Position numbers and translations under genes: made by a program. Positions 3,062 through 38,400 of a stretch of 64,000 bases of DNA are shown here, in pieces. Origin of the DNA: Enoplolaimus lenunculus (lineage: Eukaryota); contig JASANG010001013.1 of NCBI GenBank assembly GCA_030248215.1, positions 310,001-374,000 on the forward strand, given 5' to 3'. The notes under the pieces were generated by a model. It ran no database searches, was not told the DNA's origin, and worked only from the letters and a program-made list of their open reading frames with translations. Position 1 is the stretch's first letter. Each line of letters begins with the position of its first letter.

Positions 3062-3267
3062 CTTAAAAATAACCTTAAAGGGTCTAGGTTTACTTGATTG
3101 GGTCTAACACAGGATTCCTGAGAGGGAGAACCCTGAATATATGACACCAACATAGATAAAAACACGATATTTGCCAGGAAACAAAAGGTTTCCGGTCAAT
3201 CGGAAGCGGATGTAAAATTTTTCTGTGAGAAATGATTGTTTCAACTTGAATTTCAAAAACATATATA

Positions 3268-6861: not shown

Positions 6862-7370
6862 GTACATATTATGGACAATTTTCAGCAAATAGCATTTTGT
6901 TTACAATATTTTCTTAAAATACAAACATGATTGTTTTGTGAAACAAATTTGCATGCAGATTGATGTACATTCGCAAACATTTGCACATTGCGCAAAACCG
7001 GCTGACGAGTAAGGATTATTAGCCATTCGTTGGTTAAACGATAGACGCTAGGTAGTAGTATTTACTTACCGCTAATTAGCAATTATGTCCGAGTATAACG
7101 AAAAAGTACAGTACTGACCTCTTTTAAGTTATTAAATACAACACAGCAAATTATTTTAAATAATCGATTTCTTCGTGTGGAAACATTATCCTATGGCAGG
7201 TAAATGGAATTGGTTCATATATAATTCGTATTCTACAAAAAATTTATAAAAAATTACGAATATTAAAATAGAATTTAAATTAGGGCTGCTGACTCCTATC
7301 GATTGCGACCCAAAATAGGGACCCCCTCTTATTTGTGTCGATACAGTACGTTTGACAGAAAAAAACTTAC

Positions 7371-9377: not shown

Positions 9378-9739
9378 GGCCCATGTAAAGATCAGGAGCG
9401 GAACGTTTTTCTGTAGAGTAAGCTTAAGCTTTATACCAATTTTTTGTTTGGATTAGGCTTATACTTAGACGTAGGAATATATATGCTCATTTTTACGCTT
9501 AGGCTTAGGCTTAGGAATGTGCTCATTCTTACACTTAGGCTTAGGCTTAGGAATGTGCTCATTCTTACACTTAGGCTTAGGCTTAGGAATATGCTCATTT
9601 TTACGCTTAGGCTTAGGCTTAGGAATGTGCTCATTCTTACACTTAGGCTTAGACTTAGGAATATGCTCATTCTTACGCTTAGGCTTAGGCTTAGGAATGT
9701 GCTTACAATACTGTTCCGCCCCTGTTCTTTACATCGGCC
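9378..9739. mobile_element. TTAGGC-carrying MITE with an internally expanded 36-bp unit
   Basis: GGCC-ended TIRs; about 6 tandem copies of TTAGGCTTAGGCTTAGGAATRTGCTCATTYTTACRC. Confidence 0.85.
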
Positions 9740-10422
9740 ACAAAATTTATTAAAACTTACGTTGAACAAGCCATTGCGGTCTGCCAAGCGGATTTGAAAT
9801 TCGAAACGATTTGTCGCTAAGCATTCGATTTCTATTCCTTATATTTCGAAAAATACAATTGACTAAAAATATTTATACTATTTTTCATTTAATAATTGTA
9901 CCAACAGTTAATTACTTTAAATTAATTCCTGTAATAAAATATATATTTTTGCAATTATAATATTTTACCGTACAAATTCAAATTAGAAGCATCACACAAC
10001 AGGATAATCGCTTTTGATTTATTTTCTGCGGTAAAAAATCTCTGTTCGTTTCCGTTATAAAAACGTCAACAAGTTTGCTGCAATTCTTCCAATTATCAAA
10101 GGGACGGATAAAACTGTCTCTATTCTTAAATGTTTTGGCCCATGTAAAGATCAGGGGTGGAACGTATTTCTGTGGAACTACAATAGAGTAAGCTTAAACT
10201 TTAGGCCATTTTTTGCTTGGATTAGGCTTAGGCTTAGGCTTAGCTTAAGGCTTAGGAATAATCTTATACAACTGTTTTGCCCATGTTGTTTGCATTGACC
10301 GAAGTTTCGAATGCATCTGCAATCTGTTTCATAGAATTTTTGACGTTTGAGTGAACATTTGGCATACCTCGATTGTATTGGCAGAAAAACAAGTCATCTT
10401 TTAAACTTGTATATGTAAATAT

Positions 10423-11074: not shown

Positions 11075-11335
11075 AGCTTTCATAGGATTTTTTTTTTTTT
11101 GAGCATGTTCTCTAGGAGTTGACTTTTACTACCTTGCGACTGCAGGGATGCGTGTTCCGACAGTATTTATGCAAACTACAGCGCGCGCGATACTCCTGCG
11201 ATCCGGTGTGTTCGCCCAGTCGAAGCCCAGTTCGCCACCCGTCCATTACAACGCACAAACAAAATTTTCTACGTCGTCGTTCTCTGCGCCGAACACGCAA
11301 CGATTCGACTCTTCTTATATCAACCCGCCGCAGAC

Positions 11336-11820
11336 AACCCCCCACACACCCCCCCAACACACAACACCACCCACACACACCACCCAACCCCCACCACCCC
11401 CAACCCCCCCACCCCACCCACCCCCCCCACCAACCCCAACCACCCCACAAACCCCCAAACACCACACACACACAACCACCACCACAACCCACAAAAACCC
11501 CCCAAACAACAAAACACACCAAAAAAACAAAAAACCAAAAAAAAACACAAAACAAAAAAAACAAAAAAAAAAAAAAACAAAAAAAAACCCAAAAAAAAAA
11601 AAAAAAAAAAAAAAACAAAAAAACAAATCACAAAAAAAAAACAAAACAAAAAAAACACAAAACCACAACACAAACCCCACCACCACCAAAAAAACACCCA
11701 ACCCCCACCACCCCCAACCACAACACAAAAAAAAAAAAAAAAAAACCAAAAAAAAAACAAAAAAAAAAAAACCGCAAACACAAAACCAACCCCAACCACC
11801 ACCCCACCAAAAACCACACA
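11336..11820. repeat. Almost pure A/C low-complexity tract, possibly a sequencing or assembly artefact
   Basis: About 480 nt nearly devoid of G and T, aperiodic, flanked by (TA)n. Confidence 0.7.
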
Positions 11821-12873
11821 TATATATATACTTGTTTTTCGTTTTCTTTTCCGTTTCTATTATGTTTGCTTGAATGGCTGCAAGATTATAAGGAAAGTAT
11901 TCAAATTTTTGTAAGGCCACATTTCCTTTTGTTTTTTACCCTACAGGGATGTCCATCAACAATTGGACATAGGCAGACGTATTTTCCAGTTAAATTTAGT
12001 GTTTAGGCAACTGGTAAATCGCAAACTGTTTCCAAATCCGCTTTTGTTCAACTATTTTATGTTTAAATTTTATTCCCACAGTTGACCAATGGCTGTATAT
12101 TGTTTTCGAAAGGCCATTCTTTATAAAATATATTTGCCTAACAGATTTCAGGGGCGTATACGTCGGCGACAATATAGCGAACGCAATGAAATTGGTGCTA
12201 AAATAATACAGAATAGTTACTTTACAGTACTTTTGAATTAACGTACGACCTCTGTGGGTTCAAAAAAATTTTCTTAGTCGCCACGATCGCTCGCGAAAAT
12301 ATTTACTCGGAGTTAAAAGCTGACAATTTGGCAACGCCTTTAGATTTGAATTGACGGCAACTGGTTAAGTGTACAATACGAAAATCTATGGGTATGTTGA
12401 GTTTTTCCAGAAACGTTCAAAGTTTAACGGTCTTTCATAGTTCATTACAGGAGTACGTCGTATTCTGTAGTTGTTCTTGTCGCCGCTCCTGCTTATAAGA
12501 AATGTTCTTAAAGGAGTGAATTAGTTTTGTACTGTAGTGATCCGAGCTAAAACGGAGCAGTGGTATATTTAGCCTTTCAGAAGCGAACCTTTTCTGTTGT
12601 TCGGTTACGGACTGTTGTTTATTTTTTCACCTCTTGTAAGGCGGAACCAATACCCTTGTTTTATAAGCATATTCATTCTTCTGGGCTTGCTCCAGAAGAA
12701 TTACAGACTCCTATTGATTGGGACTCAAAATAGGGACCGCCTCGTATTCGAGTAACTACATGCGGTAGCTGTTACTTGTCAATCAGGAATTTCTCGGTAA
12801 AAAGGATCCTGAGAGTAAAAACTCTACGCTTCCTGGAAGTTGCGTTGAGTATCAATGCCCATATTCTCAAATA

Positions 12874-13087: not shown

Positions 13088-14721
13088 CTCAAATGTATGC
13101 CACGCCTCTGTCACCGTAAACCAAAGTAACATAATACAAACAAGACAGCATCATATATTGTCCGTACCTTAAAATTTTTTATGATAAGCTCATATCAGAT
13201 TAAACCTGGGTCGTAGAGTAAAATTTATTGGATTTCAAAGCGCGACGGCTTCAACTTTCCGAAACGGTAAACGTGTGACAGCGAATATTAAATGACAAAT
13301 CGGTTAACAATGGCCAAGAGCGTCGCCATGGGGGACGGCATTGGGCGGACGTGCCCCCTCTCCCTCAACTTCGGCTTGTGCCACCCCAAATAGGCTCGGT
13401 TTAAAAGTAAACAATCTTGAATTGCAATTGTAGAGGTCTCTGAAGCTTAGCCGGTGCCCCCAAATGTAAATTTATGAGGACGCCCGTGACAATAGTGTCT
13501 TTACTTGACAGCGACGTTTTGCAATACAGCATAATCTTGTACCACCGGCGAATCAAAGGGTATCCTAAGCATATGCCCGCGGCCAATATAAATAATCGGG
13601 CCGTAACAGTAGCATAAGCATAATCCATACCACGAGCCTATTAAGCCTAAGCCTTCGCGCAGGGAAACGCCTATACGTAAGCCTGAGTTTGAAATCAAAC
13701 ATAATGTTTGAACAAAAAATTAGTCTAAAGCCTAAGCATACGTTATTGCAGCCCCGTGAAATAACGGTCCGCTCCTGATTTAAGCATCCTACCCCCGCGA
13801 AACGCGGATGAAAATACAAAATTTGTAGCAACATTTAACCCTAAAATTAAGTTTGGATTCTCGCTCGCTTTGCTCCAGAGTTATTTTAATACTGTTTGAA
13901 TCCGCCAATAAATATGACGCACGGGGTGAATGTTAATCTCGTAGGCTTAGGCTTCGGCTTACTTTTACACCATGCCGAGAGTGTTTTAGGTTACCGTTTC
14001 GGAATACGATTAAAACTTGTCTTACACTTGCAAAAGTAGGAGTTCATGTAAAGATCAGGGATGGAACGTTTTTCTGCAGGACTGCAATAGAGTGAGCTTA
14101 AGCTTTAGACTATTTTTTGCACATTTCTTAATAATATGTTTATACTAGTGTTACGGCCCTGATCTCTATATTGGTCAAAGTAACATTGGTCGAATAAAGG
14201 ACTGTATGAGTACAATTTCGTTAATACCGCTAAATTGCTAATTTCACGGCACACAGCCCAACACAGCAAAACATTTGTAACGCTTTTGTGAGATTGCAAA
14301 ATTGTATTGCAGCGGTGTATATGGAACTGCAAACACTGCATTCTGAGATTTTATTTCATATTTTAAGCAAATTTAGCAATTACTGCAAAACTGCAATTTC
14401 ATGTTGAAAAATGAATCCCGAGCAAACTCAATATAGCCAGGTTTATTGTAGTAGAAACTTGACAGTTTTAGGGTTGCGGTATACTTATCGTACGGCGCCG
14501 TCCGTCACTGTCCGTCAACATACGTTATCGTATGTGAGTTATTTGTGTACGATATCGCATGGTGACGGACGGCGCCGGACGTCAACAAAAGTATAGCGCA
14601 ACCCTAATTGTGTTAGATATTTTTCCACATTCAGTCGTGCTTTCTTATACAGTACCTTTGGATAACAATTAATATCGAAGTTTCGCTTGTTCGATACGGA
14701 AAATCACACTATTGGTTGTGC

Positions 14722-14927
14722 GGCTCATGTAAAGATCAGGGGCGGAACGTTTTTTGGTGGGACTGCAATAGAGTAAGATTAAGCTTTAGACTGATTTTTT
14801 TGCTTGGCTTACGCTTAGGCTTAGGAATATGCTCGTTCTTACGCTTAGGCTTAGGCTTAGGCTTTATTAGGACTAGGCTTAGGAATATGCTTATAATACT
14901 GTTCCGCCCCTGTTGTTTACGTTGGCC
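14722..14927. mobile_element. TTAGGC-carrying MITE (Merlin-like); a second copy follows at about 14955-15158
   Basis: GGC TIRs; TSD GGTTGTGC/GGTTGCGC. Confidence 0.85.
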
Positions 14928-15689
14928 GGTTGCGCTATACTCGATGCGCGTCGGGGCCCATGTATATAACAGGGCCGGATCGTTGTCCGGCGGGGTTGTC
15001 ATAGAGCCAGTTTAAGCTTTAGACTAACTGTTTTGCTTACGCTTTATGCTTAGGTTTAGGCATAGAAATCGGCTCGTTCTTTCGCTTAGTCTTAGGCTTA
15101 GGCTTAGGCTTAGGAGTATGCTTATACTACTGTTCCGGCCCTGCTGTATACATGGCACCGTTTGGCCATACACCACAGCGCGTCGTTCTTTTTTTAAATT
15201 TTATTTTATTTTTGACGTGCGGCGGTGAGCGGCACCATAAAATATAGCGCAATACATAAAGTATATCTTAACAACGCCATATTCTTACGCACTGGTGGAC
15301 AATTGGTTTAATTTGGCTTAGGCTTAGGAACACATTTTTGCAACGCTTAGGCTTTGGCTTATGCTCAGCAATTCGCTTACTCTACTGTTACGCCCCTTAA
15401 AGTAACATTGGCTAATTTCTCAATAACTTGAAGTCCAACAGTTTTTTGTTAAAATAACATTTGTTGGGTTGTGATATAATCATTTTCTTCTATGTTTATT
15501 CAAACCTCCTTTTTCAGATTTCCAAATTATTTGAACAAGAAATTTCAACCGTAAAATTAGTACAACATTCGGCCCGTGTTACTTATAAAACACTGCCCCC
15601 TTGGAAACATAACTGCAAGATTTCTAGACTTCGAAGCTTACAATTAGGCTTATGTTTTAGGTTCACTCTTATGTTTCGGTTCAAGCTTA

Positions 15690-15888
15690 CACTGCAAAAA
15701 ATGGAGAGTAAAATTGACTCTCTCCGAAATAGGCTTTTCCTGGTTTCACAAACTGAGTCAAAATTCGACTCCGCCGGAGTCAAATTGAGTCAAACTTGAC
15801 TCAGGCGGAGTCGAATTTTCACTCAGTATGTGTAGTCAGGAAAGCCTATTTCGAAGAGAGTCAATTTGACTCACCATTTTTTGCAGTG
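15690..15888. mobile_element. Palindromic CACTG-type MITE inserted in a TTAGGC-like array
   Basis: TA|CACTGCAAAAAATGG...CCATTTTTTGCAGTG|TA. Confidence 0.85.
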
Positions 15889-16061
15889 TAAATTTAAGCT
15901 TAGGTTTAGGCTTTGGCTTAGGTTTAGTCTTAATAGGCGTAACACGAGACAGTCGTCCCTAATTAACATGGGAATTAAATTAGACACAAAGTGAATAATT
16001 CTATGTTCGGTCTGCGTTCAAATATTTTTACCGTCACATTTTTATCTCAGTCCTCGGCGAT

Positions 16062-16732: not shown

Positions 16733-16854
16733 GTTTAATCTATGCTTTAAGCAAAAAAGCCTAAACCTAGATAGGCAAATATAATCCCAAAACAAAAGAA
16801 AACACTAAACATAAAGTCTATCCCAAAACCTGAACGTAAGACGTGAGTTAAGTC

Positions 16855-17056
16855 GGCCAACGCAAAGAACAGGTGCAGAACAGTATCATTAGCATTTTTT
16901 AAGCCTAAGCCTAAGCCTCAGCCTAAGCGTAAGAATGAGCATATTCCTAAGCCTAAACCTAAGCCTAAGCCAAGCAAAAAAATTTAGTCTAAAGGTTAAG
17001 CTTACTCTATTGCAGTCTCACAGAAAAACGTTCCGCCCCTGATCTTTATATGGGCC
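16855..17056. mobile_element. TTAGGC-carrying MITE (Merlin-like)
   Basis: Perfect 8-bp TSD GTTAAGTC; GGCC-ended TIRs. Confidence 0.9.
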
Positions 17057-18148
17057 GTTAAGTCATACTTTGCTGAACAATTTAGTATCGTTAAAATCAT
17101 TGAAACACGCTAGTGTTTACAATATATGTTCAAGCATCGAGAATGCACGCTTTTGGAAAGTTTCGCAGAATGTTCTCTACAGGAAAGCAGAGCTGGAATG
17201 AGGTAACTTACGTATAGAATATCCTAATTGGCCGTTTAGACACCATACACAAATTGGACAGTTAAAAGTCTCATTTAAGTTGTTATTAAGTTTGATTTTT
17301 GTAAATTTTCTAAAAAATTGTATTAGAAATATGTAATTACCATAGCTAGTCGATATTATTGTGTGATGCTAATGACACCGTGCAATAGATTGCGTGCCCC
17401 TGCGATGTTTCTTCTACTGAAATTGTAACTAAAACAATAATATTTTGTAATAACCTCCCATGCATTATATCTACCAACAAACGCTCAAATTAAGCTGATA
17501 GGTGATGTCCGCTGGCCCCATATGTTTCTTGTTTCACTGACCGCAAGCGTGTTAACACTGAAAGACAGCCGTCAAAGATATAGATGACAACTATTTTCAT
17601 AGAAGTTATAGAGCTAATATTATAAGCATTACCTACTGATCTATGGTCTAACTAACCCTTGTTTAAACTCTTTTACATGCTTCAAGCGAAACATATCACA
17701 ATCTGTCCCTTCTAGGGGCACTTTTACCTAGTGTAAAACTATAAATTAGTTTAAAAAACACTAGCAATATGGTTTTTCGACTCCTGCACTTGTTCTAATA
17801 GAATTTTGGGTACAGATTTCTGCAATTTTGATAAAAAAATTGCACTTAATAAAGTTTGTTAATTGAGTTTTGACAAAAACGAAAAATATTTTAGCAAACT
17901 GTGCTTAACTTAAATTAAATTTGAAATAAATCTGAAATAAAGACTCAAATACGGGCCATGTAAAGATCTGGGGCTGAACGTTATTCCATGAAACTGGAAC
18001 AGAGTAAGTTTAAGATTTAGACTAATTTTTGTGCGTAGACTTAGGCTCAAGTAAGCTCATTATTCCGCTTAAAATGGGCTTAGGCTTAGAAATATGCTTA
18101 GGCTTAGGCTTACGCTTAGGCTAGACTTTACGCTTAGGCTTAGGCTTA

Positions 18149-20323: not shown

Positions 20324-23300
20324 AACATGCTATACCACTGTTCCGATCCTATTCCATAATGGGCTGCCGTTAGTATATACACCAGGGATGTCATGGAGTG
20401 GGGATTTTCAACCCCATCTCATCCCGCCCCGCGACTAATTTTCGTCGGGATCCCATGGGGATCCTCCCGCCACCCCGGCAAATTCCGGACGAGGTGTACG
20501 TTTAGCTAAGTTGTGATACGAATGTCCTGAGGACCTGTAATCATTAAACAAACATGCCCTAAGGTTTTTAATCACAAATGATTAATAATGCATCATTGTG
20601 CATTGATTTCTTGAAGCGAGTGTAAAACCCCATGCAAAGGTGCAAGTTTCTGCTGCGAGAACTCACAGTTGTAATTTCTGTGCAATATTTTGACAGAAAG
20701 AAACTTACAGCTGTAACTTGCAACAGCCAGTTTTGTTTGAAAACACTGGAAGGGCAGGATGGCATGTTAGGATGTTGAGGATTGATAACTTTAGCACAGA
20801 ACTATGTATCATGTGTAATCCATCCCACCTTGAGAGGCATCGGTTGAGTTTTGATGGGTGGGGCATGCGTAACCACGTGCTAGAAAGTAGAGACCCGGCA
20901 GGTTGAAAACTAAGAGCCTGAGTACTGAACAAAATATAAGCCCATTTATTTAGTTGAAATACTCTGCGTTCGCGCAAACCGCTAAAGTTTTTGAAAATTT
21001 TGATTTTAATGTTTGAACGATCAGCTTTGTTAGCGCAGTTGTAGAAATGGTCAAAACCGTGATGAATTTTTTTCAAATTTTGAAAGAAAATTTACGTAGT
21101 GACTCTTAGAAAATATCGCTTAGAAATAACTATTGTGACGTCCGTGCGAAGGGACAGCTTCATAAAAGCAGTTGTCTCCCGGATGTTCTTCTTTCTCTCA
21201 CTGTAAAAAATGGTGAGTCAAATTGACTCTCTCCGAAACAGGTTTTTCCTGACTACACAAACTGAGTCAAAATTCGACAGTCAAATTCGACTCAATTTGG
21301 CTCTGACAGAGTCGAATTTTGACTCCGTTTGTATAGTCAAGAAAAGCCTATTTCGGAGAGAGTCAATTTGGCTAACCATTTTTTGCAGTGTTTATTATCT
21401 CTTCAAAACTATGCAATTCTTTTGGGCTCAATAATCAGGCTCTGTTTGACGGCCAAACCGTTATTGTTCGCCTTTGAGCCGAAAGTCTCAAGTAAAATTT
21501 TACACGTTGAAATCAGAGAAATAGAAAATATTGATGTGAGAATAAGTTATATAAATACTGCGTCAATGTCAGTATTATTTTGTGACTAAAACGATTGAAC
21601 ATCGTATTCAAGTTTTTACGTTCGAAAAAAACTTTGCACGTGTGAATAAGGCTTTAAGATGTCAAGAAATCCTTAAACATGTTATTATATATGTAAATCA
21701 GGTTTAAAATTGCTAAAAACGAAAGAATGCATCAGTAAACGATTTTTTGAATTAATAATATATTATCATTCGACCTTAATCGGCGAAGCTTTTAAAGCCT
21801 GCGGGCACACAATATGTTTTTGATTGGGCCAATTTGTCTTTAGCGTATAGTTTTTCCATATTAATTCCATATGGCTAACGTTTGTCAAACTGATGCATCA
21901 ATATTTTAAGGCGTAAAAAGCATTCAAGGTTCCGTGTTATCGAGATGAAAAATAAGCTATTTTAATAGGTCTTGAATTGACTTTCTTGCTCATTTCAACG
22001 GGAAAACTTTGGCTTTGGGTGAGGTTATAAACGGCACTTCACTCTCAGGTGTAGGTTTATACAATTGATTCAGGTGGGGCTGATAAGATATACGAACTAG
22101 AATACTTTTAATGTTTGTGAAGTGTTCTACATACACACTGTAAATTTCAATGAGTTGATTTTAACTCAGAATGAGTTGAACTTTTGCTTTAGTCTGAGTT
22201 AGGACTATCTGTGGTGCACATATTTTGTACATTTGGCTATTAGGCCAATTTGAATATTGAGCGTAATTTCGTATATTTAAATTAGTTTGTGTAGCCAGAA
22301 TATATATTTGGTTGTCAGTCACTTTGGTAGGGTGATGAAAACTTATTACTTTGTATGGCTGTGTTCGGTTTGTCTGGTTCTTTTTGGATTGTTATCTTCA
22401 TATGTTATTCTATGTAATTCTTAGGTGTATTTGCATTATCCTAATGAAATAAATCACAGTAGCAGAATGTTTACGGTGATATGTCAATGCAACTTAAAAT
22501 CAGCCTTCTTCCTAATACTTTGGCTGACCATTACATTATTACCGACTACTATAATCAGAACTCAATTCTGAGTTGATGCAAATCATTTTGATTTAATTTA
22601 GTCAACTCCCCCCGAATGAACTCAATTCAAAGGAGGAATCAACGAAACTCAGATTTCAATGTTTGCTGTGATCAGCACAGAAATAATTGACTTTCCGTTT
22701 GAGTTGAATAATCAACTCAATGAAATGTTCAGCGTTGCATTTTGTCCAGTGTCTTTCATTTACGCCAGCAACAAAATATTTGAAGCTCAATACAATCCCA
22801 ACATCAGTTAACAATTAAATTAATCTTGAGCAAAATACATAAAATAAAATCTGCGCACACTGCAAATTCCAGTGAGTTAAGTTAATTCAGAATGGAGTTG
22901 GATCCACTCAGAGGTCTGAGCTCTAAATAGGTCTTTCAGAACTCACAATTCTGAATTTATTGAATTAAATTCATTCTGAATTAATTAATGAACTAACCCA
23001 GAACTCATTCAACTCACACATGTTTACTGTATATTAACGCAGTAGTAACCAGAAATAACTAATTTTCAATCTGAGTTGATTAACCAACTCATCGGAAGTT
23101 TCAGTGCAATACGATTCAAACAAACAGATTAAACTGCGTGCAAAGTATTTTAAAGAGCAATAGATGACAGACACGAAATTTTTTGCCGATATTTTGAATT
23201 TGTATTCAAATATCAATTGCTTCTATAATACAAAATGAAATCTACAAGCCACCGGAATAGTATATGCAGGCAAAGTATCAGGTATATTTAAAAATTTCAG

Positions 23301-24451: not shown

Positions 24452-24911
24452 TACTTTTTAAGGTTAAAGGATGTAGGCGTCATATCTTTAACGATTATGG
24501 TTTGTTTAAATGTAAACTTTGAGTCGTCGGTTATAAGGGTTGTATAGAGTTTCTGAAGATAACTTTAGCACAAGCAGTATAATTGCAAATTTTAATCTAC
24601 CAGTTGATGCTACGTTAACAACTTAGTTAGTTGTATAATTCAACAAATAAGAAACCAATACACTGTATACTTTTTAAGGTTAAAGGATGTAGGCGTCATA
24701 TCTTTAACGATTATGGTTTGTTTAAATCTAAACTTTGAGTCGGCGGTTAAGACTGAACATTAAGTTTAAGGGTTGTATAGAGTTTCCGAAGATAGCTTTA
24801 GCACAAGCAGTATAATTGCAAAATTAAAGCAAATTTTAATCTACCACTTGATGCCAATTAACAACTTAGCTAGTTGCATAATTCAACAAATAAAAAACCA
24901 GTACACTGTAT
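24452..24911 (+). repeat. Direct tandem duplication, unit about 216-245 bp
   Basis: TACTTTTTTAAGGTTAAAGGATGTAGGCGTCATATC... occurs at ~24452 and ~24668, and both copies run to ...TACACTGTAT. Confidence 0.85.
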
Positions 24912-25228
24912 GTAAATCAGATGTTTTCAGTTTATGTTCGAAGTGTTTTTAGCATTGTGTTTTAACGTACGCACTAAGTTATTTCAGTGTGTTGCTAAGT
25001 TTTAGGTTTTGGTTTTTTAATGTTTTTACTTGTGCTACGTATGAAGCAACCAACCGCCACATATGCATCATGATATTACATACCGGTTGTCAGAACTGCA
25101 CGGTGGGGACCACCCCTCTGTCCGAAGTACTGCGTGTGAGTATACGCGGCTTGTGTATGTGCAGAGTGTGTAATGTTAAGACATATACATACTCGTGCAC
25201 ATATACCACCAGAAGAAATTAGGATATC

Positions 25229-25301
25229 GGCCGCGTGGTGTAATGGGTAGCGCGCTTGACTCGCGAGCGAGAGGTCCGAGGTTCGAGTCCCGGCGTGGCC
25301 A
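25229..25301 (+). ncRNA. tRNA-like Pol III cassette (pseudo-tRNA, nominal anticodon CGC) in the 5' LTR
   Basis: 73 nt; A box TGGTGTAATGG, B box GGTTCGAGTCC; acceptor stem GGCCGCG/CGTGGCC fully pairs; mismatches in the T and anticodon stems. Confidence 0.75.
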
Positions 25302-25387
25302 TATCTTTCGGAGAAATTTAGGAGAAAAATCAAATATATTCGCAGTACTTCGGAGGAAGGGGTCGTCCCGACCGTGCAGTTCTGACA

Positions 25388-25404
25388 TGGAGGTCCCACC
25401 GAGA
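25388..25404 (+). promoter_or_regulatory. Primer-binding site complementary to the 3' end of tRNA-Gln
   Basis: TGGAGGTCCCACCGAGA is the reverse complement of TCTCGGTGGGACCT-CCA, the 3' end of a metazoan tRNA-Gln; it directly abuts the 5' LTR. Confidence 0.85.
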
Positions 25405-25470
25405 CGGGCGCTGTAAATTGCAGGCCCATGGATTCGGATAGTTTGGATTCGCGGTCCGGGGCGACCGCCT

Positions 25471-25483
25471 GAAGAAGGGGGAA
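25471..25483 (+). promoter_or_regulatory. Polypurine tract
   Basis: GAAGAAGGGGGAA immediately before the 3' LTR start TGT. Confidence 0.85.
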
Positions 25484-25577
25484 TGTGAGTATACGCGGCT
25501 TATGTATGTGCAGAGTGTGTAATGTTAAGACATATACATACTCGTGCACATATACCACCAGAAGAAATTAGGATATC

Positions 25578-25650
25578 GGCCGCGTGGTGTAATGGGTAGC
25601 GCGCTTGACTCGCGAGCGAGAGGTCCGAGGTTCGATTCCCGGCGTGGCCA
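25578..25650 (+). ncRNA. tRNA-like Pol III cassette in the 3' LTR
   Basis: Same cassette; B box GGTTCGATTCC. Confidence 0.75.
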
Positions 25651-25780
25651 TATCTTTCGGAGAAGTTTAGGAGAAAAATCAAATATATTCGCAGTACTTC
25701 GGAGGAAGGGGTCGTCCCGACCGTGCAGTTCTGACACTGCGAATATACATGGTTTTTCCCCTAAGTTTCTCCGAAACTTA

Positions 25781-26175
25781 TGGCCATGCTGGGAATCGAA
25801 CCTTGGACGTCTCGTTCGCGAGTCTAGCGCGCTACCCATTACACCACGCGGCCGATAGTTAGAACTGCACGGTCGGGACGACCCTTTTCCTTGAAGTACT
25901 GTGAATATACATGCTTTTCCTCAAAATTTCTCCGAAACTTATGGCCACGACGGGAATCGAACCTCGGACGTATCGCTCGCGAGTCTAGCGCGCTACCCAT
26001 TACACCACGCGGCCGATAGTCAGAACTGCACGGTCGGGACGACCCCTTTCCTTGAAGTACTGCGAATATACATGATTTTCCTCTTAATTTCTCCGAAAGA
26101 TATGGCCACGCCGGGAACCGAACCTCGGAACTCTCGCTCGCGAGTTAAGCGCGCTATCCATTACACCGCACGGCC
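25781..26175 (-). ncRNA. Three tandem tRNA-like cassettes (25781-25853, 25942-26014, 26103-26175)
   Basis: Reverse-complement copies of the LTR cassette at a 161-bp period. Confidence 0.7.
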
Positions 26176-26421
26176 GATATCATAATTTCCTCTGGTGCTA
26201 TATGTGCACGAGTATGTATGTGTCTTAACATTACGCACTCTGCACATATACAAGCTTCACCGCGTACACTCACACCGATGCTTAGCATCAGCAGAGGTTC
26301 GGTTTGCTTTCATATAACCGTATGTCATAAGGCACTCGAACCAAGCATATATACTGGATTTATATTATTTTTTCGTGTTTTCAGCTAATCTATTTTAGAG
26401 CAGTTATAGAATATTTCAAAA

Positions 26422-29400
26422 ATGCCAACAGCCGTTGTCGACAATAATGCACCGCGACCGCGTATGTGTCATATTCGTAAAGCGTTTGAAGGCGAAGATT
26501 ACGGTTTCAATTTACACGCTGATCGAGAACTCGGTATACAATTTATCGGAAAAGTCGACCCAGATAGTCCAGCAGAGCGTTGCGGGCTTCGTACTGGTGA
26601 CCGTATCATTGCAGTAAATGACCAGTTGATCGAAGGCGAAGAGCATCCAACGGTAGTCTCGCGGATTCGTGAAAATCCACTCGAAACAAATCTGTTTGTT
26701 ATCGATGAAATCAGTTTCAAATGGTACACAGATCGGTTTATTCCATTAACCATTGATATGCCAAACATTGAGTATTGTGGCGGTGATCGCGCGGCCTCGG
26801 TAGCGTATGCAACAGTTACAAAAACGAATGGGTCTCACGTATACGCAGGATTACAGGATGAGCATCGGCGTAATTATAGCCAGGACGAATCGTCCACACA
26901 TAGCTATCGAAGCGATAAATTTCAGGGTCACGATCATTTCGAGTCAAGAATTGAACAAGAGCACAACAGCCATTTAGATCCGAGTGTGGTGCACTCGCAC
27001 GAACGGTATAGATATGGCGATAGCGAACCTGATATAGAGAAGCGGCCTATGATTCCGCCGCCTGATTATAATGACGACCCTACACAGGTTGGAGGACAAG
27101 CTTTGTTTATACTTGTTGGATAGATGTTTGTAACTTGTGAATACATATTTTTGATAGATTATTCAATTATGTTTTGAGTAAGCTAAGTGTTTATGCTAAG
27201 TGCATTTTTTCTCCATGTTAATGTTAATATTGTTTACACTTCTAAATCTCTCCCCGGAATAGCTTGCGTGAATATCCGCACGATAGAAACATAGAATATA
27301 TGTCTGGCTTCTCCACAGCTTGAAAATTTCCGCCGGGGGGGGGCGTTTCCTGGGGGCCCCCAGGAGTTTCCTGGGGGGCAGCTAATTTTGCTGAGGGGCA
27401 GTTTCCTGGCCCCCCCAGATGATCTGGGGGGTCCTGGGGGGCAGGCTTAAAATTTTGCAAGCCGACTTTTTGGACCATTTTTTATTCTAGATCTTGTTTC
27501 CAACTCAACTGATGATTACTCATCGCTCAACTTGACAAAAATTCCCTGCAAACGCTAATAACATTAATTTTAACTAATATTCCTCACAACTTTACCACAA
27601 GTTGAAAGAAGCACAATTATATAAAATATAGATAATCTATAATTGAAACTGTGATTAACATATATTCCATATATTAGTCACAGCTTCAGTTTATCATATG
27701 GCTCAGGCGGGTTGAACTTGTTGCTGCAAGGTGCTTTCGAATGCTGTATGCCCTGAAACGGTCTTTATATAATTGTGCTTTTTTCAGTTCATTATTGAAT
27801 TGTACTAGTTACTACCGGTATTTGTAACGCTATTAAAAATTATAAGTACTCAGCGTAATATAAAATCACATTTTGCCGAATGTCCGCCTCAAAAAAAGTC
27901 CAGGTCTTTATGTTTTAACATTGAAAATTTTTGGCTTAGAAAAGTTCTCCCCCCCCCAGCAAAAAAATTTGCTGGGGGGCGGGCGAAAATTCGTCGGGGG
28001 CCTTTCCGGGGGGCGGCAAAATTTTCGCCGGGGGAAAATGAAAATTTCGAAAAGTGCTGGCCCACCCCCGCTGTGGAGAAGCCAGTATGTATAGAATGGC
28101 GAAGTGGCGATGACTGTTTCAGTATTATGTTTATATACTTGTTTGAACGATTGAGACAAAATTTTTAACCCGATATGTACATTATATATTAACTAATTGA
28201 AATTAACCAATGTAATCTGTATATATTTAACATTAGTTGATTTTAGGACATTCATGACAATAATTCTGGTCAGGCACACCTACATTTCCATCATCATCAC
28301 CATGACAGCAATGTTGGATCAGAGCCAACACCAAAACCACGCTTGTGTAAATTGCGTAAACATAACGAAACCGATGAATATGGTTTCAATCTGCATGTGG
28401 AACCTGGACGAGTAAGTGACGTCATTGCTGTCCATTGGTACTCTGGAAGATTGCTGCTAGGGGTAGGGCACCCCCTAGATAACAGATAAATTTATATGTC
28501 AGGGGTTATTGGATATCCGTTTCCGGTGTTTTTTGGTATCCGATCGCACTCTGTATATATGCTATATATAAACCTGCCGGATACCGGATATTTACAATCG
28601 CGGTCCGATTATCATAAAGCTGGTTTTTACCTGCTTGCATATTTAACATCTTGTTAAGATTGCATTTCCAGACAAGTCAGGTAGCGCAAATTTTTCACAC
28701 TGATGTAAAAATATTCAGTCCATTGTATTTGGGCGATTTAAATACTTCACAAAGTGCAAAATGTCTAGGACTGCTTATAGATTGATAGAGTCACAGAGTT
28801 GATTCACTACTTGTTACCAAAAAATACATTTTTAACGCTATTTTATAGCTTTTAACGGTGTAAACAGACCCTTTAGGACGCCAAAATCCTGAACCAAATG
28901 CAGTAGGTTGAAACGTATATGGTAAATTATGAAGTGTGGCACAGATTGAATTGGCGATACACGATCAGAAAGTTTTATAAAAATAAGGGAAAATTCCGGT
29001 GAAAAAATACAGGATTTATTACAAAGTGAAAATACCAGATTTTTCTACCAAACCCCAGAATTGCGGTTGCACCGTGAATAGGAGTCATTATATGTATGTA
29101 AGTATTGTATTGTCTACATGACGTGCTACCCAGCAAAATTCTTTTAGTACTGTCGACAATTTTTCAAATAGGGGTTGTGAAGATGTTCATTCTGCGGCGT
29201 CGCCACGCGTCGACTTCGCCCTGTTTTCGTGATAAAATGGTAAGCTCCCTACCTTTCAATTTTTACCTCTCAGTAATTTTTTTGTAAAGAAATACAATTT
29301 TCACTCAGATTTTTTTGTGATAAATTGGTAAGCTCCCTCTTACTGTACAATTTTTGCGTTTCGTAACACTTGCCAAGCCGCCACCTTCCGTCAGAATTTT

Positions 29401-32400
29401 TTTGATCCGCCTCTGTGTCTTGTAAATATTTCGATGATTTTATCCTTGTGTGTAACGATATGACTGTGCTGTTCTATGTGTATATATATTTAGGCTTAAT
29501 ATCGTAATCTGATTGAACTTTTTGTGAGTAATAAAACGCTTTCAAAGTATCTGTTGTATTACTAAGCTAAACAAATTAAACATTGATATTGTTTGGAAAT
29601 TCAATTTTATAGCTTAAATTTGAATCATAAGATGTAGTTGTGTTAAAAATAACATATAACTGTAATTATATGTTGAAGCGTTGCCCGGTGGAGGGTGTTG
29701 GGGCGCATAAACCCCGCCAAATATATGGACTAAAATTTTATTCTGACCCGTTTTACTACTGAATAGTATTACGGAACCAGAAAGGATCAATTAATATTAG
29801 TAGTCCATACCCGCATATAAAGGGCAATTGAAAATCCTGGCTATGCGCCTGTCTATGCTTTAGCGTACCGATAATATACCGGTGGCTGTTTTTCAGGAGG
29901 GGCTGGGCAATCATTTGGTTCACAAATAACTTTAATGTTCCTAATTTATAAGAATATTGGGTTGGTTTCAAAAACTGCTTCTGTCATATGTTGGATGTAT
30001 GCCCAAGGTTTTCGCCTAACTGCGGATAGGAACAGCTGATTCTGAGTTATCACCCCCACAAGGTTGATATGCGACTGAATGCCTGTGTTTATGCTTAGTT
30101 GTTTAGTCATAGGACGTCAAAGGATCGCTTTGTAGCTAAAAATGCTTGTTTTGTGCATATAACTTCAGCGTGATTGGTTATCTTTAGTGCTTCGGTCGAA
30201 ACTTTATGGTTTCTGTTAGTGTGATTAAGGTTGTGCCAGAACGGTTTGCTGTTTGTGATTTAAATATTGTGGTCCAGGTTTTCGGGTTTCTACGTAATAA
30301 AGTATATTTTCAATGGGTTCTAGGGCCCATATTGTCAAATGTGTATAGCAACTATCATCAGTTAGTAGTAGCTTTCCAAACTGACGAAACTGTTGCAGTT
30401 TGTTGTTGAAATCAAAATTTGTACAGAAGTACAGCAGATCATTATGTAAAAAATGTGCTGAATTTTGAAGCTAATCACTCATTGGTTCGAAAATTATAAG
30501 GAACACTCACTGGTTCGAAAATTACAAGGCCTATCACCAATTGGTGATCGGTGCTGCACACATTTGAGAATACTGGCTTAGATCTTAGTTTATATACACA
30601 TATATAATGGAAATATTTTATTTCGTTAACTTGTGAATTGTAAAATTTTGTCGCGGAAATTTTTCGAGTTGAAATTCGGGTTGAGCTTGAAAATGTAATA
30701 TTCGTTTAAATTCGGTTCAACGGTTGTGGCATTTTTAATTTTGCTACGTATATAGCAAGGTGCAACCGGAATTCCGGTTCCGGCATTTTTTCACTTTCCG
30801 GCACCGTTTCCGGTATATTTTTACCGGAATTAAAAATCCCGGCATTAAATTTTGGTGAGTGGAAATTTAGATATTTTACTAAAAGAAAAATTACATATCA
30901 TTAGTATAGCATATAAACCTTGACAATCGACGAAAATAAACCATCGAAGGTAGATTTCGCTTCCGTGGATTATGAAAATCTAAAATACAACAGATAAAGT
31001 GTAGTGCATACCTGCCTCCAGCTAAGGGTGATTTCACCAATAATATTGCAAAAAAGAAAATTTAAATGAGTTTTTCGGTGGTATGTATTTTTCATTTTTG
31101 GGTTCCGCTAAATTGTAATTCCGGTTGCACCGTGGTATATAGCGTGGTTTGCAAAACTCAGTATGCTCAGCGACTTATTATATTATCGAGTGCCCGCTGC
31201 GATCAATAGTAAATATGTAGAACGGTTTCCGATTATTTTTCTTTGTGTCATTTGCGTTTCACTTAGCATTTCGATGCGAAAAACGTTTTTCAACTTGGTA
31301 TAATCATCTGCGCCTTAATTTGCTTAAAAGCCCATTGTTCCATTCGAAATAGTTAATATTTTAATTCTACTGCACTAATTTTGAATTTGGGTAGAATATT
31401 ATACTTAAGTATATATCGATAAACACCTGGCTTGTTGTTGCCTAGTTTGTATGCGTATAGCTAAACGGTTAAACGCGTAGGTTTTGGCTTATAAACAAAT
31501 GTCCCGAGTTTATAAGAACACCGGTCATTTGATTTTATATGGGGAGACGTTTTTGTGTTTTTTTTCTAAGACGGGAATGTTTAGTTTTCTCGCGCGCCAG
31601 GGATGGCCGGTCTCGGTAAGTCTCGGGATTTGACCGGTCTCGGTAAATCTCGGGATTTGGCCGGTCTCGGTAAATCTCGGGATTTGGCCGGTCTCGGTAA
31701 ATCTCGGGATTTGGCCGGTCTCGGTAAGTCTCGGGATTTGGCCGGTCTCGGTAAGTCTCGGGATTTGACTGGTCTCGGTAAGTCTCGGGATTTGACTGGT
31801 CTCGGTAAGTCTCGGGATTTGACTGGTCTCGGTAAGTCTCGGGATTTGACTGGTCTCGGTAAGTCTCGGGATTTGACTGGTCTCGGTAAGTCTCGGGATT
31901 TGACTGGTCTCGGTAAGTCTCGGGATTTGACTGGTCTCGGTAAGTCTCGGGATTTGACTGGTCTCGGTAAGTCTCGGGATTTGACTGGTCTCGGTAAGTC
32001 TCGGGATTTGACTGGTCTCGGTAAGTCTCGGGATTTGACTGGTCTCGATAAGTCTCGGGATTTTACTGGTCTCGGTATCGCTTTCGCTTTTTTTGACCGA
32101 AACCGCCCATCCCTGCTGCACGCTAGTGTAAATTTGATTAAAACCAAAAGGTTTTGCCACATTGCTATTTATTATTTTTCTACACTTAGCGTCTTAGGCG
32201 AGACGTAAGCTTAAACCTCAGTCTACTAATAATCTAGTTATGATGTGTGGGAAACGTTTCGTGAGAATGTGAACAGGTACCACATCAGACACGTGTGTAG
32301 CGTAGATCACGAGAATTACAACTTAGAGACGGAATACGGAAAGTTTGTAATTGTTTTTCTGCGTGAGTTTGTAACGAAAAAATTATTGGATTGTTGATCA

Positions 32401-35400
32401 GATCGGCGACGAGGACAGTCACAAATGCGTACCATTCGTAAAAAATGTTGCACCGTTTGTCACGTTTAACGATTGTTAGCAAACAAAATATTGTTTGTTT
32501 TGGATTGTTTTGAAAATGTAAAACTTTGAATCACACAAAGTAGTATCTTCTATCCCCGATAACTCCTGCGTCGGTAAAAGTTTACAGTGAAAATAATATG
32601 AAAATGTTATAAATCATTGTTGTTTTGTTGTTATTTTAGGGTCAATTTATTGGTAAAGTAGACGCAGATTCAATTGCGCAGCGTGCTGGACTTGAAAAAC
32701 AACAGCGTGTAGTTGGCATTAATGGAACATTGATTTATCCGGAAACCGAACGAAAGGTAAGCCATTAGATAGAAAAGCGATTTATCCAGGTTCTGCAGGT
32801 TTAATTGTAATTTTAACTCGTTCCATGCGCTACGTAATAGCGTATGTGTATCCTACCGGTGCTGGAGGCTGAATAAATTGTTCAATAAAGTTTCTATTTT
32901 TGATTACGGGCACCGCAAGGATATTTCTAAATGCTAAAGGCGTTTGTTGAAAAGATTGTTTGAGTTGCGAAGGGGCCATTGTACCATATGGCGTGCCGTG
33001 CGGATGGTCGGCTCCGTTGCTCGTAACCGCTGAGCTACTCAGCTGTGTTGTAGTCCATTGTTATCGTCGTCATGAGAAAAGGGTCAATGAAAAAAGTGAG
33101 TTCGGAAACTAAAATCGAGACAATGCGCACGCGAAGTTTAAAACTATTTGTGACCCCGCTTGTAGGTTGCCGGAAAACTTAAAATATCAGCGTATGGTTT
33201 CAGGACCATTTCCAAACATTTCGGAAAGACTGGTGATATTTTGTCGTATAAAATATAGTAGGAGAATATCTTGTGTTACAATATTACTGACAATGCTCGT
33301 AAACGAACATCACATAGGAGGTTGGTTGATGCCAGAGTGAGACCGGATATCCGGATTCGGTTTAATATTCGGCAAAAAACTGATATCCGTATTTGGTTTC
33401 GGTATCCGGTATAACACGATCAGATGCCGGATATTTACGGGTGTGGTTGTTAATATAAAAAAACTGCCTTTTACAAGTGAACATGTTTAGCATTTTGCTG
33501 CGAATACAAAGGTGTGACCGGATATCCGGCTCCGGCTCGTGCAAAAAATCGACATCCAGCTCCGGCTCTGGTATTTTAACTTGCCGGATGTTATTTTTAA
33601 AAAATTCGAAACATTTATACCATCATTCGTATTTATGACAAGTACAATCGAAATCGAACTGATTGACTTACTTTTACATATTTTTTCTAACGCATGTAAC
33701 GTATGTTTGCATGTGACCGTGTACATTCTCAGTGTGTATTGGGTTGCAATAACGCTGGAAACCCTGAACTTTTAATTATGAATTTTATAACAGACAAAAA
33801 CCTTGAGCATATAAAAAATACAGCGAAAAATAAATTAATTTGACATATGATCCGGTGTCCAGTTCCTGTTCCGGTAAAAAATTCATTATCTGTATTCGAT
33901 TTCGGTATCCGGTAAATTAATATCCGGTCGCACCCTGGTTGATGCTGCTTGGATTTGTATAGATATTTTCAGAAAGAAATGTTGTTTGTTGTTGTGGATT
34001 AATATGTATTTTAGGAAGTAATTGCTTTGATCAAAATCGATCCAATGAGTACCGATTTGCTGACTGTAACACCCGAAGTTGAATCGTGGTACAAAGAGAA
34101 CAACCGCGAGTTTAGCTTTGACGACGCGGAAACGTATAATCTGGCAACAGGGCAGGTAATGTGTTTTGTTTTTTATACGCTCCCGCTAAGTAGTATTAGC
34201 TATGTAGTTTTAAGTCATGAAAATTTATTAAACAGAGTTATTTGTATCAGTACATGTATTGAAGTGATGTAACATAAAAGAGATGTCATGGGAAATGCGT
34301 AGTTGGTGCTAAACAAACAATATTTGAATGAGTTTTAATACAGTATAGTTTCGACTCGCAGGATGTGTAAGTCTTGGCTGTATTGATTCATCTATGTATC
34401 ATCTGAACACAGAAATACATATATAGCTTTGTGACCTGAAGATCTAAGAAAAAAATTGCAACTCCTGTATTATGAATTGCCGGAAATTTATCGCTGAAAA
34501 TTATTGTCATAACGTAATTCCATATGAAACTACTCATTTATGTGTAAAGTCGCAACAGTTCGAAGTGAACTGTAAGCGAATTGCGTTATATACAAATTGA
34601 ACGTAATTTTTGTTGCGTACTTTTCGGTAGATTGTTGTTTAAATTCGTAACGTTGGCGTTGCACCTTATTATTATGTAATATATAATATATATAATATAT
34701 ATGTATATGTATATATATGTGTAGTTACTTGTTAGCTATCCATCATGGCTTGCCTGGTTCTCTGTTAATAGAAGTATTTGTAATTATCCTATTATTATAT
34801 TTAATCAATCATTCCTATTTTGTGTAATAACTTTAATGATTTTGCTCGCAGCGTAGTTTCTCATTTCTTGGTATAAAAATTCTGCTAAAATTTTATAATA
34901 TTTTCTGTGCAATTTATGGCAGTGGTGTGTAAGCCGCGTTGTAGTGCTTGTTTGATATCTGTCTCGAAAGTTATAAAAATTCGGCCATTTCTGTATTAAG
35001 AGCAGTTGTGCAAATAAAAGCTTATCGAGGCGGAAAATGTTTTGTTGAATCAAAGAATTAAAATTTAAATTTTAGTGTGAATTTTAAATTTTGGTGAATG
35101 TTGTGGAAATTGAAAAATTGGATTGAAACAATATGAGTGGAATCGCATATTACTAGTATAAGGGAACGGTTTTGAACGGATGTTTATTTGTATATGCAAG
35201 TGTCACAAACACCTATTTCTACATGTGTGTCACAGGGTGGTCTCAAACACAAGGATGTTGCCAGGGGGAAAGGGCGCCGCTCCCCCTGAGACTGCGTTCG
35301 TTCCTGAGCTGAGTGAACATTTGAGTACCAGCTTCAACGTCTGTCATTGGAGATTACAGATAAAACATGGGTTTGTGTTGCAATTTTACTGTGATGTTCT

Positions 35401-38400
35401 GGCGTAAACGTGTAAAAATTAGAAATAATTTCAGAAAGCACGTTTTTAACCTGTTGCTTGCAGTCTGTAGCACAATGAATTATTACGGTTTTGTTTGTAG
35501 ATAGCACATAACGGCAGCGAATCTGTTGTTATTGCGTCGAACGGTAATTCAGACGACCAATCCTCCTGTGGCGAACAAGGAACTTCTGACGAACGAATAA
35601 TGAATATTTATAAACAACAACAGCAGCAGCAACAACAACACCACCACCACCAACAACAACAACAACCAACTGTAGTTTCAACGTTTACGTACGTTGCACC
35701 TGAAAAAAGCCCAAGTGTACACAATGAAGAAACCTCTGAGATACTAATTAATCGACAATCGAGTTCTCAAAGGTCAACTGAAGGACACTATTACAGCGAT
35801 GAGGCGCGTTGCGGGACGATGTTGTACCATGTTGACCCTACAAGAGCGCAGTCGAGTTGCGATAGTCGCCAAACGAACTCGTGGTTTGATGGGCGAACGG
35901 CGCAGACGGCTGGAGACCGTGATCGAGAAGGGCTGAAACGATGGGAGGGATCGCAGGTACGGACCCAGAAGGAAGAGGGTGGGGCAGAATGGGATGGGAT
36001 GAGGAGCAGAAGCGGATGTGGGCCAAGCAATGTTTATGTCGGTTGTGGATCTGGGTTGAAGGATGTCAAAACCTAGGCACAAAACATAGTAATCATTAGG
36101 TGGGGGTAGACATATATTTGAACTTTAAGGAGCGTACAAAGAATGCGTGTATCTCGCCAAATTGCAGAAGGAAAGAGGAATTAGGCAAGTTTACTGACTT
36201 CCGTAGAATAGAATATGATTTTTTTTGTATTTTATAAATTCGAAAACTACTCCCAATCTGTGCTGGCTTCGGCAACATCTCTTATTTTTGCTTCAAATTG
36301 CAGATTCTAAAACACCGTTTCTATCCAGTTTTGGTTTTGCGTGTAAATTTGTTGAGTTGTTAGGATAGTTGGAAAACTGACGAAAAACCAAAAGTTTTTT
36401 AAGCGTTATCTGCGATTTGACTAAGGATGATGTTCTACGAGGCAGGACACGTTTTATGGTTCGTATGCCGTGTCAGGTAACGCCCACTGAACTAAATTCA
36501 TTAAGGGGGTTGGTTTAATAACCTTGCTTGCGTCCCCTCAGTTTGAACTGGTATTCGTTTACGAGCTTGCTTTTTGGCTTTAAGGATGGGATGTGAGTCT
36601 GAGGGTGGCGTAATGGTACATTTAAGTTTTAAGACATTAGGTCAATGGAAAACCGTGTAAAAAAGGTTTATTTTTGCAATATGTTTAGAAAGTTTCGGGG
36701 GGACTGTGTATATGTTTTGTAAGTAATAGATTACGTGCTATTGTGTATATAATTAGTCAAAAAGTATATGCGTGGAAAAATGCTATTAACTGAATTGTAG
36801 CTTGCTTATCTAAAACGTAGAAATTTGTATAATGGACTGGGGGTGATTATAATTTTTGTTAGTGCAGAGTATAAAATATTATATAATACTAGAATGAAAA
36901 GTGCCCCGATGTGGCCATAGAAAACGATATGTTTCGGTAGTAAGATTTTTAGTTCAATACCGCTAGTATTACAATTTCCATGCATGCGTATAAAGTTTAA
37001 AAACTAGATTAATTTGATGCCAATCAGCGTCCTCCCGAAACACGACACAACAATACTATAGAATTAATAAAAGTTAAATCATTGAGTTTGATTGACTGCG
37101 TAACGGAAACATATCCGCAACTTTCTCTGACAGCGGCCAAATAGACATGTGATCCACTGTTTCGAAATATTAAAACAAGAAATAAATACTAGAATATAAA
37201 TGACGAATTATGGTTGATGTAAAAAATTTGAGTACACACTCGTGACATTAGTTTCTTGCACTTAGTACACTGAAGTTTCGAATATATACAGAAAAATTTT
37301 GGGTTTTAAAAAGAGTATATAAGTAGAAATTAAGCGTAAAAGGCTGGTGACCCAATATTAAAAACGTGTTTGTTCGTCAATTGGCTCAATGTAAAGAACA
37401 GGAGCGGATCAGTATTATAAGCATATTCCTAATCCTAAGCCTAAGCATAAGCGTTAGCATGAGCATATTCCTAAGCCTTAAGCATATTCCATTCTAGTCC
37501 CGCAGAAAAACGTTCCGCCCCTGATCTTTACATTGGCCGTCATTGGAGTACAACGCAGATCTCGTCAGCAAAGTTGCAAATATTGTTTCGCTACGTACTC
37601 ACTCAAATATTTTAATGTTTTAAAAGTCTAAAATCTGGGTACCGTTTAGCCAAGTATGGAGAGGGCACTGTACGGTACAAAATTTATACAGCTCCAAAAC
37701 TTGATGCGTTATCGTTTTCTATAGCCTCGTCGGGACACTTTACTATCTATTGTGACTTTTCTCCGAAAAAGTTGCAGATATGTTTCCGTTACGCAGTCAA
37801 TCAAACTCAATGATTTAACTTTTATTAATTCTATAGTATTGTTGTGTCGTGTTTCGGGAGGACGCTGATTGGCATCAAATTAATCTAGTTTTTAAACTTT
37901 ATACGCATGCATGGAAATTGTAATACTAGCGGTATTGAACTAAAAATCTTACTACCGAAACATATCGTTTTCTATGGCCACATCGGGGCACTTTTCATTC
38001 TAGTTTCTAAGCTTTAGGAAGAAATTTAATGTAAATTTACCTTAAGTGCGAAAAAGTCAAATTTAAAGTCATATATACTCACGTTATAATTGTTTTAGAA
38101 CTGTTAAGCTATATTTCCATAGAAAATTAGAAACTACATTTTCACAATCACAAGAGTCGCGCTTTCCTAATTTTATTTTTATTTATTAGGTAACTCGCTC
38201 AATTTATAATGCTAATATATTTTAATTCATATAAATTGTTTGAATTCAAATAGAAAATCAATACAATTGATAAGTACTTGCTCTAGTGAAAACTGATTTT
38301 ATGCTGCATAGTAGTGTAGAACCAATACATCGGTATCGGTATTGTAATCGGTATTTTGGAAGAATACTGATTCCGATACTTTCAATTTTGTATTGCACAC

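Follow-up and report, generated by a model that had tools for sequence, protein, structure and literature searches.

Helenus (TRIMp3) elements, described by Kojima (2024, Biology 13:119; PMC10886601) as the 'twin brother of Cassandra', are TRIMs of less than 1 kb that carry tRNA-derived sequence in their LTRs. They have been reported from fungi, a lycophyte and six animal phyla. A model of Pol III transcription and mobilisation in trans was proposed for them in the same paper, which itself says that the model is not experimentally validated. The published families are tied to Gypsy or Copia elements.

The Cassandra elements of plants resemble the element described below in having LTRs with a Pol III promoter, mobilisation in trans and a long-range fold predicted over their full length (PMC7215508, PMC10853983), but their promoter is derived from 5S rRNA and has its own terminator, and their host is a plant (PMC7215508). 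Ajax, from nemerteans, is likewise an animal TRIMp3 with a 5-bp TSD, whereas its promoter is 5S-derived and its PBS fits tRNA-Leu (PMC10886601). SINE2 elements have the internal tRNA-type A/B promoter and the short length in common with it, but lack the pair of LTRs, the PBS and the PPT and are mobilised through the target-primed reverse transcription of LINEs (PMC10886601).

Here we describe a 602-bp element in a 64-kb stretch of DNA (the window, to which all coordinates refer). An earlier note on this DNA had presented it as a SINE-LTR hybrid strategy in an animal; as that design is already published as Helenus (PMC10886601), its novelty cannot be maintained. The element represents a new family within the published Helenus class and not a new class. 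Our main reading, to which we assign a probability of roughly 0.8, is that of a young dispersed TRIM of a new Helenus/TRIMp3 family that is likely transcribed by Pol III and likely mobilised in trans by a tRNA-Gln-primed element with a 5-bp TSD.

Structure of the element

The element occupies positions 25135-25736, contains no genes and consists of an LTR of 253 bp, an internal region of 96 bp and a second LTR of 253 bp. Its parts are as follows.

25130-25134, + strand: left TSD of the young element, CTGCG (5/5 match, at a length of 5 bp only)
25135-25387, + strand: 5' LTR, 253 bp, TGT...ACA
25153-25206, + strand: long hairpin of 24 pairs in the U3-like part of the 5' LTR (z -4.51; 0/200 shuffles fold equally well), absent from the earlier note
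25388-25404, + strand: PBS, 0-nt spacer after the LTR; 17/17 letters equal the published tRNA-Gln3 PBS, the 18th differs
25471-25483, + strand: polypurine tract (PPT), 13 nt, adjoining the 3' LTR
25484-25736, + strand: 3' LTR, likewise 253 bp; identity with the 5' LTR 98.8%
25737-25741, + strand: right TSD, CTGCG

The earlier note had described a 602-bp TRIM with two 253-bp TGT...ACA LTRs about three differences apart, a 96-bp internal region bounded by the PBS and the PPT, and a perfect CTGCG TSD, and all of these were recovered exactly. The three differences between the LTRs lie at LTR positions 19, 153 and 182, and to judge from the identity of the pair the family of this copy has recently been active. 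When TSD lengths of 4, 6 and 7 bp were tried, only 0, 0 and 1 letters matched. As the LTR pair, the PBS and the PPT are all present, the element is a non-coding TRIM and not a SINE2, which would consist of a tRNA head and a tail.

Comparison with published Helenus families

Like Helenus, the element is shorter than 1000 bp and has two LTRs, a PBS and a PPT, a non-coding interior and a tRNA-like sequence with A and B boxes in each LTR. A TSD of 4-6 bp with interspersed copies is a criterion for Helenus, and here the TSD is 5 bp long and the copies have unlike flanks. Published families comprise solo LTRs and many copies and range in size from 311 to 1263 bp, within which our element (253, 96 and 602 bp for LTR, interior and whole) falls.

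Several traits set it apart. In Table S1, every row of an animal Helenus family with a value gives a 4-bp TSD (two rows are n.d.), whereas the two insertions studied here gave 0/4 and 2/4 matches at 4 bp against 5/5 and 4/5 at 5 bp. The word 'Gln' has 0 occurrences in the text and supplement of the Helenus paper (PMC10886601), while the 602-bp element has a Gln PBS. Similarly, 'nematod' has 0 occurrences and the six animal phyla do not include Nematoda (PMC10886601), while the host here is probably a nematode; our copy is likely the first Helenus from this phylum. Of the animal Helenus LTRs compared over their full length, 10/10 have a T4-T6 run after the cassette, in contrast to only T3 here, and the A box reads TGGTG rather than the TRGCY of most Helenus (PMC10886601). 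In the Copia-dependent Helenus of fungi, the spacer, the TSD and the PPT end are similar to those here.

A term search of Data S1 for a named family, made with five motifs of the element and in which parts 2-9 were searched in this way and not by alignment, gave 0, 1, 0, 0 and 0 matches; the single match was rejected as unrelated, lying inside a wasp LTR. The literature search for other descriptions of tRNA-bearing TRIMs found only Kojima (2024); Repbase, Dfam and bioRxiv supplements were outside its scope and could hold the family.

The tRNA-like cassette

Each young LTR contains one tRNA-like cassette.

25229-25301, + strand: 5'-LTR cassette, with its A box at 25236-25247, its B box at 25280-25290 and CGC at the anticodon position
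25578-25650, + strand: cassette of the 3' LTR

ARAGORN found just two tRNA-like genes in the window, one per LTR, and read them as Ala(CGC). With the Rfam model RF00005 (gathering score 29) the two cassettes scored 47.2 and 47.7 bits, and three weaker inverted ones were located at 25781-25853, 25942-26014 and 26103-26175, so that five similar cassettes are crowded at this site. The A and B boxes match the motif in 4/5 of them. In both young LTRs the boxes and the acceptor stem are intact, the latter being complete with 7 pairs. ARAGORN, Rfam and the box motifs agree with the claim of a cassette with intact A and B boxes in each LTR. No match to 5S rRNA-derived sequence, the mark of Cassandra and Ajax LTRs, was obtained in 24500-26800 at E values up to 1.

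Alanine tRNA identity depends on the pair G3:U70. The corresponding pair of the cassette is C3:G70, and the cassette is hence probably not of alanine identity. It does not fit a functional tRNA gene in this respect despite the CGC anticodon, nor in its downstream sequence, where only T3 follows, without a close terminator of T4 or longer. Disagreement of isotype also makes a working tRNA unlikely for the cassettes of published Helenus (PMC10886601). The cassette is likely a promoter only, neither a working tRNA nor a primer.

T-runs and RNA folding

The following features bear on the predicted transcript.

25361-25376, + strand: U5 segment complementary to the pre-PPT segment
25450-25466, + strand: pre-PPT segment, a near-inverted copy of the U5 segment (16 pairs, 2 of them G-U, and 1 bulge)
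25753-25757, + strand: first downstream T-run of at least 4 (T5), the predicted Pol III stop for the young copy; part of an older inverted copy

The earlier note had pointed to the lack of TTTT in the element as a sign of Pol III use. There is indeed no T4 anywhere in the element, whose GC content is 53%, and only 17 of 1268 segments of 602 bp lack TTTT, 3 of these overlapping the element. About half of the shuffled sequences were equally free of T4, however (984/2000 mononucleotide and 1074/2000 dinucleotide shuffles). Because the absence is expected from base composition, it was discarded as a sign of selection and lends no support to the Pol III reading. The T5 said to lie just past the 3' LTR is present at 25753, but the flank in which it stands is not ordinary host DNA: it is an older LTR copy, whose A5 on the other strand forms this T-run.

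A GCGGTC/GACCGC hairpin had been proposed just before the PPT. It can be drawn on paper, but has a probability of 0.0 in the folded ensemble of 25225-25736 and was dropped, being outcompeted by pairing with U5. In this predicted ensemble the pre-PPT segment pairs with U5 of either the 5' LTR (0.58) or the 3' LTR (0.42). The observed pairing score was reached by 99/1000, 81/2000 and 48/2000 shuffles, which gives modest support. Variants in other copies, seen among the loose ends, convert both G-U pairs to Watson-Crick pairs.

An older inverted copy around the young element

The young element sits in opposite orientation inside an older copy of its own LTR, which runs from 26274 down to 25088 on the - strand and had escaped notice in the earlier note.

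26019-26274, - strand: older unit A, spanning the whole LTR (positions 1-252); identity with the young LTR 91%, with mutations in both the A and the B box
25858-26018, - strand: older unit B, LTR positions 91-252; 5' part C-like, 3' part A-like
25737-25857, - strand: first part of older unit C (LTR positions 91-211), separated from the second by the young element
25088-25134, - strand: second part of older unit C (LTR positions 207-253), reaching the LTR terminus
25083-25087, + strand: probable left TSD of the older element, CCGGT (4/5 at 5 bp)
26275-26279, + strand: probable right TSD of the older element, CCGAT

Units A, B and C are each 88-91% identical to the young LTR, and A and C are 84% identical to each other. 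When joined across the young element, its flanks form a single continuous LTR unit in register. The near-duplication CCGGT/CCGAT, for which other lengths gave 2/4, 1/6 and 1/7 matches, is a second vote for a 5-bp TSD; the TSD length thus rests on two insertions, one exact and one at 4/5.

Neither PBS nor internal part is present in the older copy. At its junctions an LTR end is joined, without microhomology, to a site that precedes the cassette by 4 nt, and the extent of the tandem units, from this site to the LTR end, matches the predicted R region. The tandem arrays of Cassandra alternate LTR and internal domain, in contrast to the LTR plus (91-252) repeats found here (PMC7215508). Of the 122 contig joints from three public runs, 15 were listed, and none of these was the 252-to-91 junction.

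Unit B was examined as a hybrid at the 24 sites at which A and C differ and B follows one of the two. The best split explained 20/24 of them, a result found in 0.34% of 20000 permutations; such a pattern is expected from unequal crossing-over within a dimer of A and C. Three origins of such a dimer were weighed. A template switch onto strong-stop cDNA, extending from the start site to the LTR end, has close to an even chance in our judgement. An old full element that lost its internal part and second U3, which would fit the 84% identity of A and C well, is plausible at somewhat longer odds than even, and local slippage is unlikely. The older copy is possibly the fossil of a strong-stop cDNA unit.

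As a separate observation, one metagenome assembly contains unrelated LTR-like repeats of another organism (L002, L005, L033, L056, L061, L064, L080, L088, L112), laid out in a comparable manner, as an LTR end, a Gln PBS without spacer and a second copy of the last 50-120 bp of the LTR. Several of them have a TATA-like motif upstream, and they show no similarity to the 602-bp element.

Dispersal of the family in public runs

Three public runs (X1, X2 and X3) were analysed as contigs only; they represent at most two samples of one study and may include the source of the window itself. To the 379-bp unit of LTR plus internal region, 2398 (X1), 4529 (X2) and 2880 (X3) contigs could be aligned, ranging from more than 99% to less than 90% alike. 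At the 3' end of the LTR (25387), 97 (X1), 132 (X2) and 150 (X3) contigs leave into mutually unlike sequence (agreement 0.36), and dozens do likewise near the 5' end. Each run has contigs that individually extend from the LTR through the PBS and the internal part into the PPT. Since so many unlike flanks occur in three runs, with 97-150 such contigs per run, the family is dispersed. The family is old enough to have subfamilies and is spread over many sites.

In X1, loose ends were found at 25243 and 25592 (30 contigs in one alignment; 6 and 18 in another). They read like the template-switching oligo of a library. The join falls on genomic letters that match the oligo end. Strand invasion by a template-switching oligo is described in PMC4534009, and because of the matching letters it is the likely source of these ends, which were therefore rejected as transcript 5' ends.

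Summed contig depth differs between runs, the median X1/X2 ratio being 0.71 over U3 and 5.65 over the cassette-U5 part, with corresponding values of 0.48 and 2.67 for X1/X3 and of 1.48 and 2.15 for X3/X2. These ratios were not accepted as evidence of transcription, because contigs carry no start, strand or level and X1 is listed as DNA and comes from a different sample. They were further discounted since X1 is also dominated by variants that are rare in X2 and X3. Such variants lie at 25361, 25392, 25402 and 25408, two of them in the PBS, where the share of depth is 68% (X1) against 0.4% (X2) at 25392 and 85% against 0.3% at 25402. X1 may be a cDNA library, and its dominant variants stem either from a subfamily that is expressed or from one that underwent a burst in a different sample. 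No RNA run was listed among those containing the element, which speaks neither for nor against transcription.

Primer and candidate helper

The PBS had been said to match tRNA-Gln. PMC1592299 gives an 18-letter tRNA-Gln3 PBS, the first 17 letters of which are identical to the PBS of the element (17/17); a mouse retrovirus paper, at odds with this, prints the identical sequence as a threonine PBS (PMC3564811).

The cassette itself might be thought to supply the primer, its RNA being cut and CCA-tailed like a tRNA so that the element would prime its own reverse transcription. The complete 7-pair acceptor stem would suit such a role, and the cassette 3' end with CCA added matches the PBS at 12/17 letters. 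One mismatch, however, falls on position four counted from the end of the primer, the encoded end matches at only 6/17, and the tRNA-Gln PBS of PMC1592299 matches at 17/17; Kojima also found no complementarity between cassette and PBS in Helenus (PMC10886601). We consider self-priming very improbable and retain tRNA-Gln as the probable primer.

The PBS 17-mer gave 0 matches in viral contigs. In metagenomes it occurred at 122 loci, none of which resembles the LTR or the internal part. After 20 rodent-ERV-like loci had been excluded from further analysis of PBS loci, 19 ORFs from 15 loci were classified: 3 loci were Gypsy-type, 4 were BEL-type, 1 had a gag match and 5 belonged to no family, while 2/15 encoded cellular enzymes and were set aside as chance matches. 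The Gypsy-type elements with a Gln PBS behind an LTR-like end, all from other organisms (L010, L028, L007), encode RT and RNase H, followed by integrase in L010; the BEL-type ones, also from other organisms (L008, L030, L037, L045), contain DUF1759. In six measured elements of these two types the spacer is 2-3 nt long, compared with 0 nt in the 602-bp element.

Published animal Helenus lineages share their PBS with a Gypsy element of the host (PMC10886601). Because Gln priming occurs in both Gypsy- and BEL-type elements, the primer does not allow the helper to be named. No remnant of RT or gag was found within the window, and the literature search on Gln-primed BEL or nematode elements yielded nothing usable. 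The helper is likely a BEL/Pao element or a Gypsy element with a 5-bp TSD. Copia stays a candidate as well, given that the zero spacer, the 5-bp TSD and the PPT end resemble those of the Copia-dependent fungal Helenus.

Proposed mechanism and alternatives

The RNA of the element is likely copied from the tRNA-type promoter. TFIIIC would bind the A and B boxes, and Pol III would start near 25225, a few bases upstream of the cassette. Reverse transcription would then be primed by host tRNA-Gln at the PBS, and the presumed helper, likely BEL/Pao or 5-bp-TSD Gypsy, would complete the cycle with its RT, RNase H and integrase. This is close to the interpretation of the earlier note, which keeps its footing in the structure, the dispersed copies and the PBS identity and loses any claim to novelty and its arguments from T4 absence and the hairpin.

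The same features could be read further, as an independent nematode TRIMp3 lineage that parasitises BEL/Pao, is highly transcribed and has lost its in-LTR terminator, with the result that its entire R-U5 is terminally redundant. The older neighbour would then be an integrated strong-stop template-switch product, the junction of which would mark the Pol III start at 25225. We regard this fuller account as rather unlikely.

Alternatively, the element could be an ordinary Pol II TRIM in whose LTR the head of a tRNA-derived SINE was once incorporated; the cassette would then be a passenger and the start would lie in U3. The LTR does retain a U3 of about 90 bp with its strong hairpin, which could hold a promoter; energy-only folding of the cassettes into a cloverleaf is poor (z -0.99 and -0.33), and Pol III use is, according to Kojima, unvalidated for all Helenus (PMC10886601). 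A mere passenger, on the other hand, does not agree well with boxes and acceptor stem intact in both young LTRs, with tandem units of the older copy that break exactly at the cassette start, or with the recurrence of the same layout in many independent Helenus lineages (PMC10886601). Transcription from U3 by Pol II is accordingly judged improbable, and Pol III transcription from the cassette remains the preferred reading.

The crowding of five similar cassettes and the lack of a single contig spanning the whole stretch might suggest a locally duplicated tRNA-derived SINE or an artefact of assembly instead of an LTR element. This reading is already largely refuted and hardly credible in view of the TG...CA ends, the PBS, the PPT, the exact 5-bp TSD, the bridging contigs in three runs and the young element's flanks that rejoin in register.

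Host gene and surroundings

The window contains exons of an NHERF-like (nrfl-1-like) gene with two PDZ domains at 26422-27090, 28328-28411, 32640-32759, 34021-34137 and 42539-42652. Its first PDZ exon begins about 150 bp beyond the nested elements, which probably occupy a 5' intron, and shares 50-55% identity with its best-matching relatives. In a PDZ tree (76 rows, 116 columns), this exon belongs to a clade of 24 rows (support 100/99); the 10 rows of the clade that bear a name come without exception from nematodes, including Caenorhabditis, Trichuris, Romanomermis and Soboliphyme, while the two organism-named rows outside the clade are arthropods, a tick and a springtail; the tree covers one domain, its bootstrap had not settled and the organism was checked for 20/75 rows. 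The host is likely a nematode, perhaps of an early branch, or a near relative of nematodes.

Self-repeats make up about 28% of the window. At least two short interspersed repeat families other than the 602-bp element are present. One is represented, for example, at 6636-6866, 9367-9750, 14717-15185, 16854-17063 and 61835-62127. A second, MITE-like family that matches itself in both orientations is found at 3263-3477, 15679-15893, 21196-21395 and 45141-45338. Tandem or minisatellite arrays occupy 31604-32077, 36886-38873, 58946-60998 and 63312-64000. The region around 11300-11900 is of very low complexity and rich in A- and C-runs, and its sequence quality is possibly poor.

Implications

As ARAGORN labels the cassettes as tRNA-Ala genes, the family would inflate the tRNA gene counts of this genome. 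The copy adds a probable new host phylum to Helenus, and its 5-bp/Gln signature points to a helper lineage different from that of the published animal families. Being very abundant and young, the family is suited to a cheap 5'-mapping test of a Helenus promoter at a predicted base, none having been validated in the 2024 paper. If the account of a BEL/Pao parasite with an integrated strong-stop product were true, the locus would provide the first physical map of a Helenus transcription unit.
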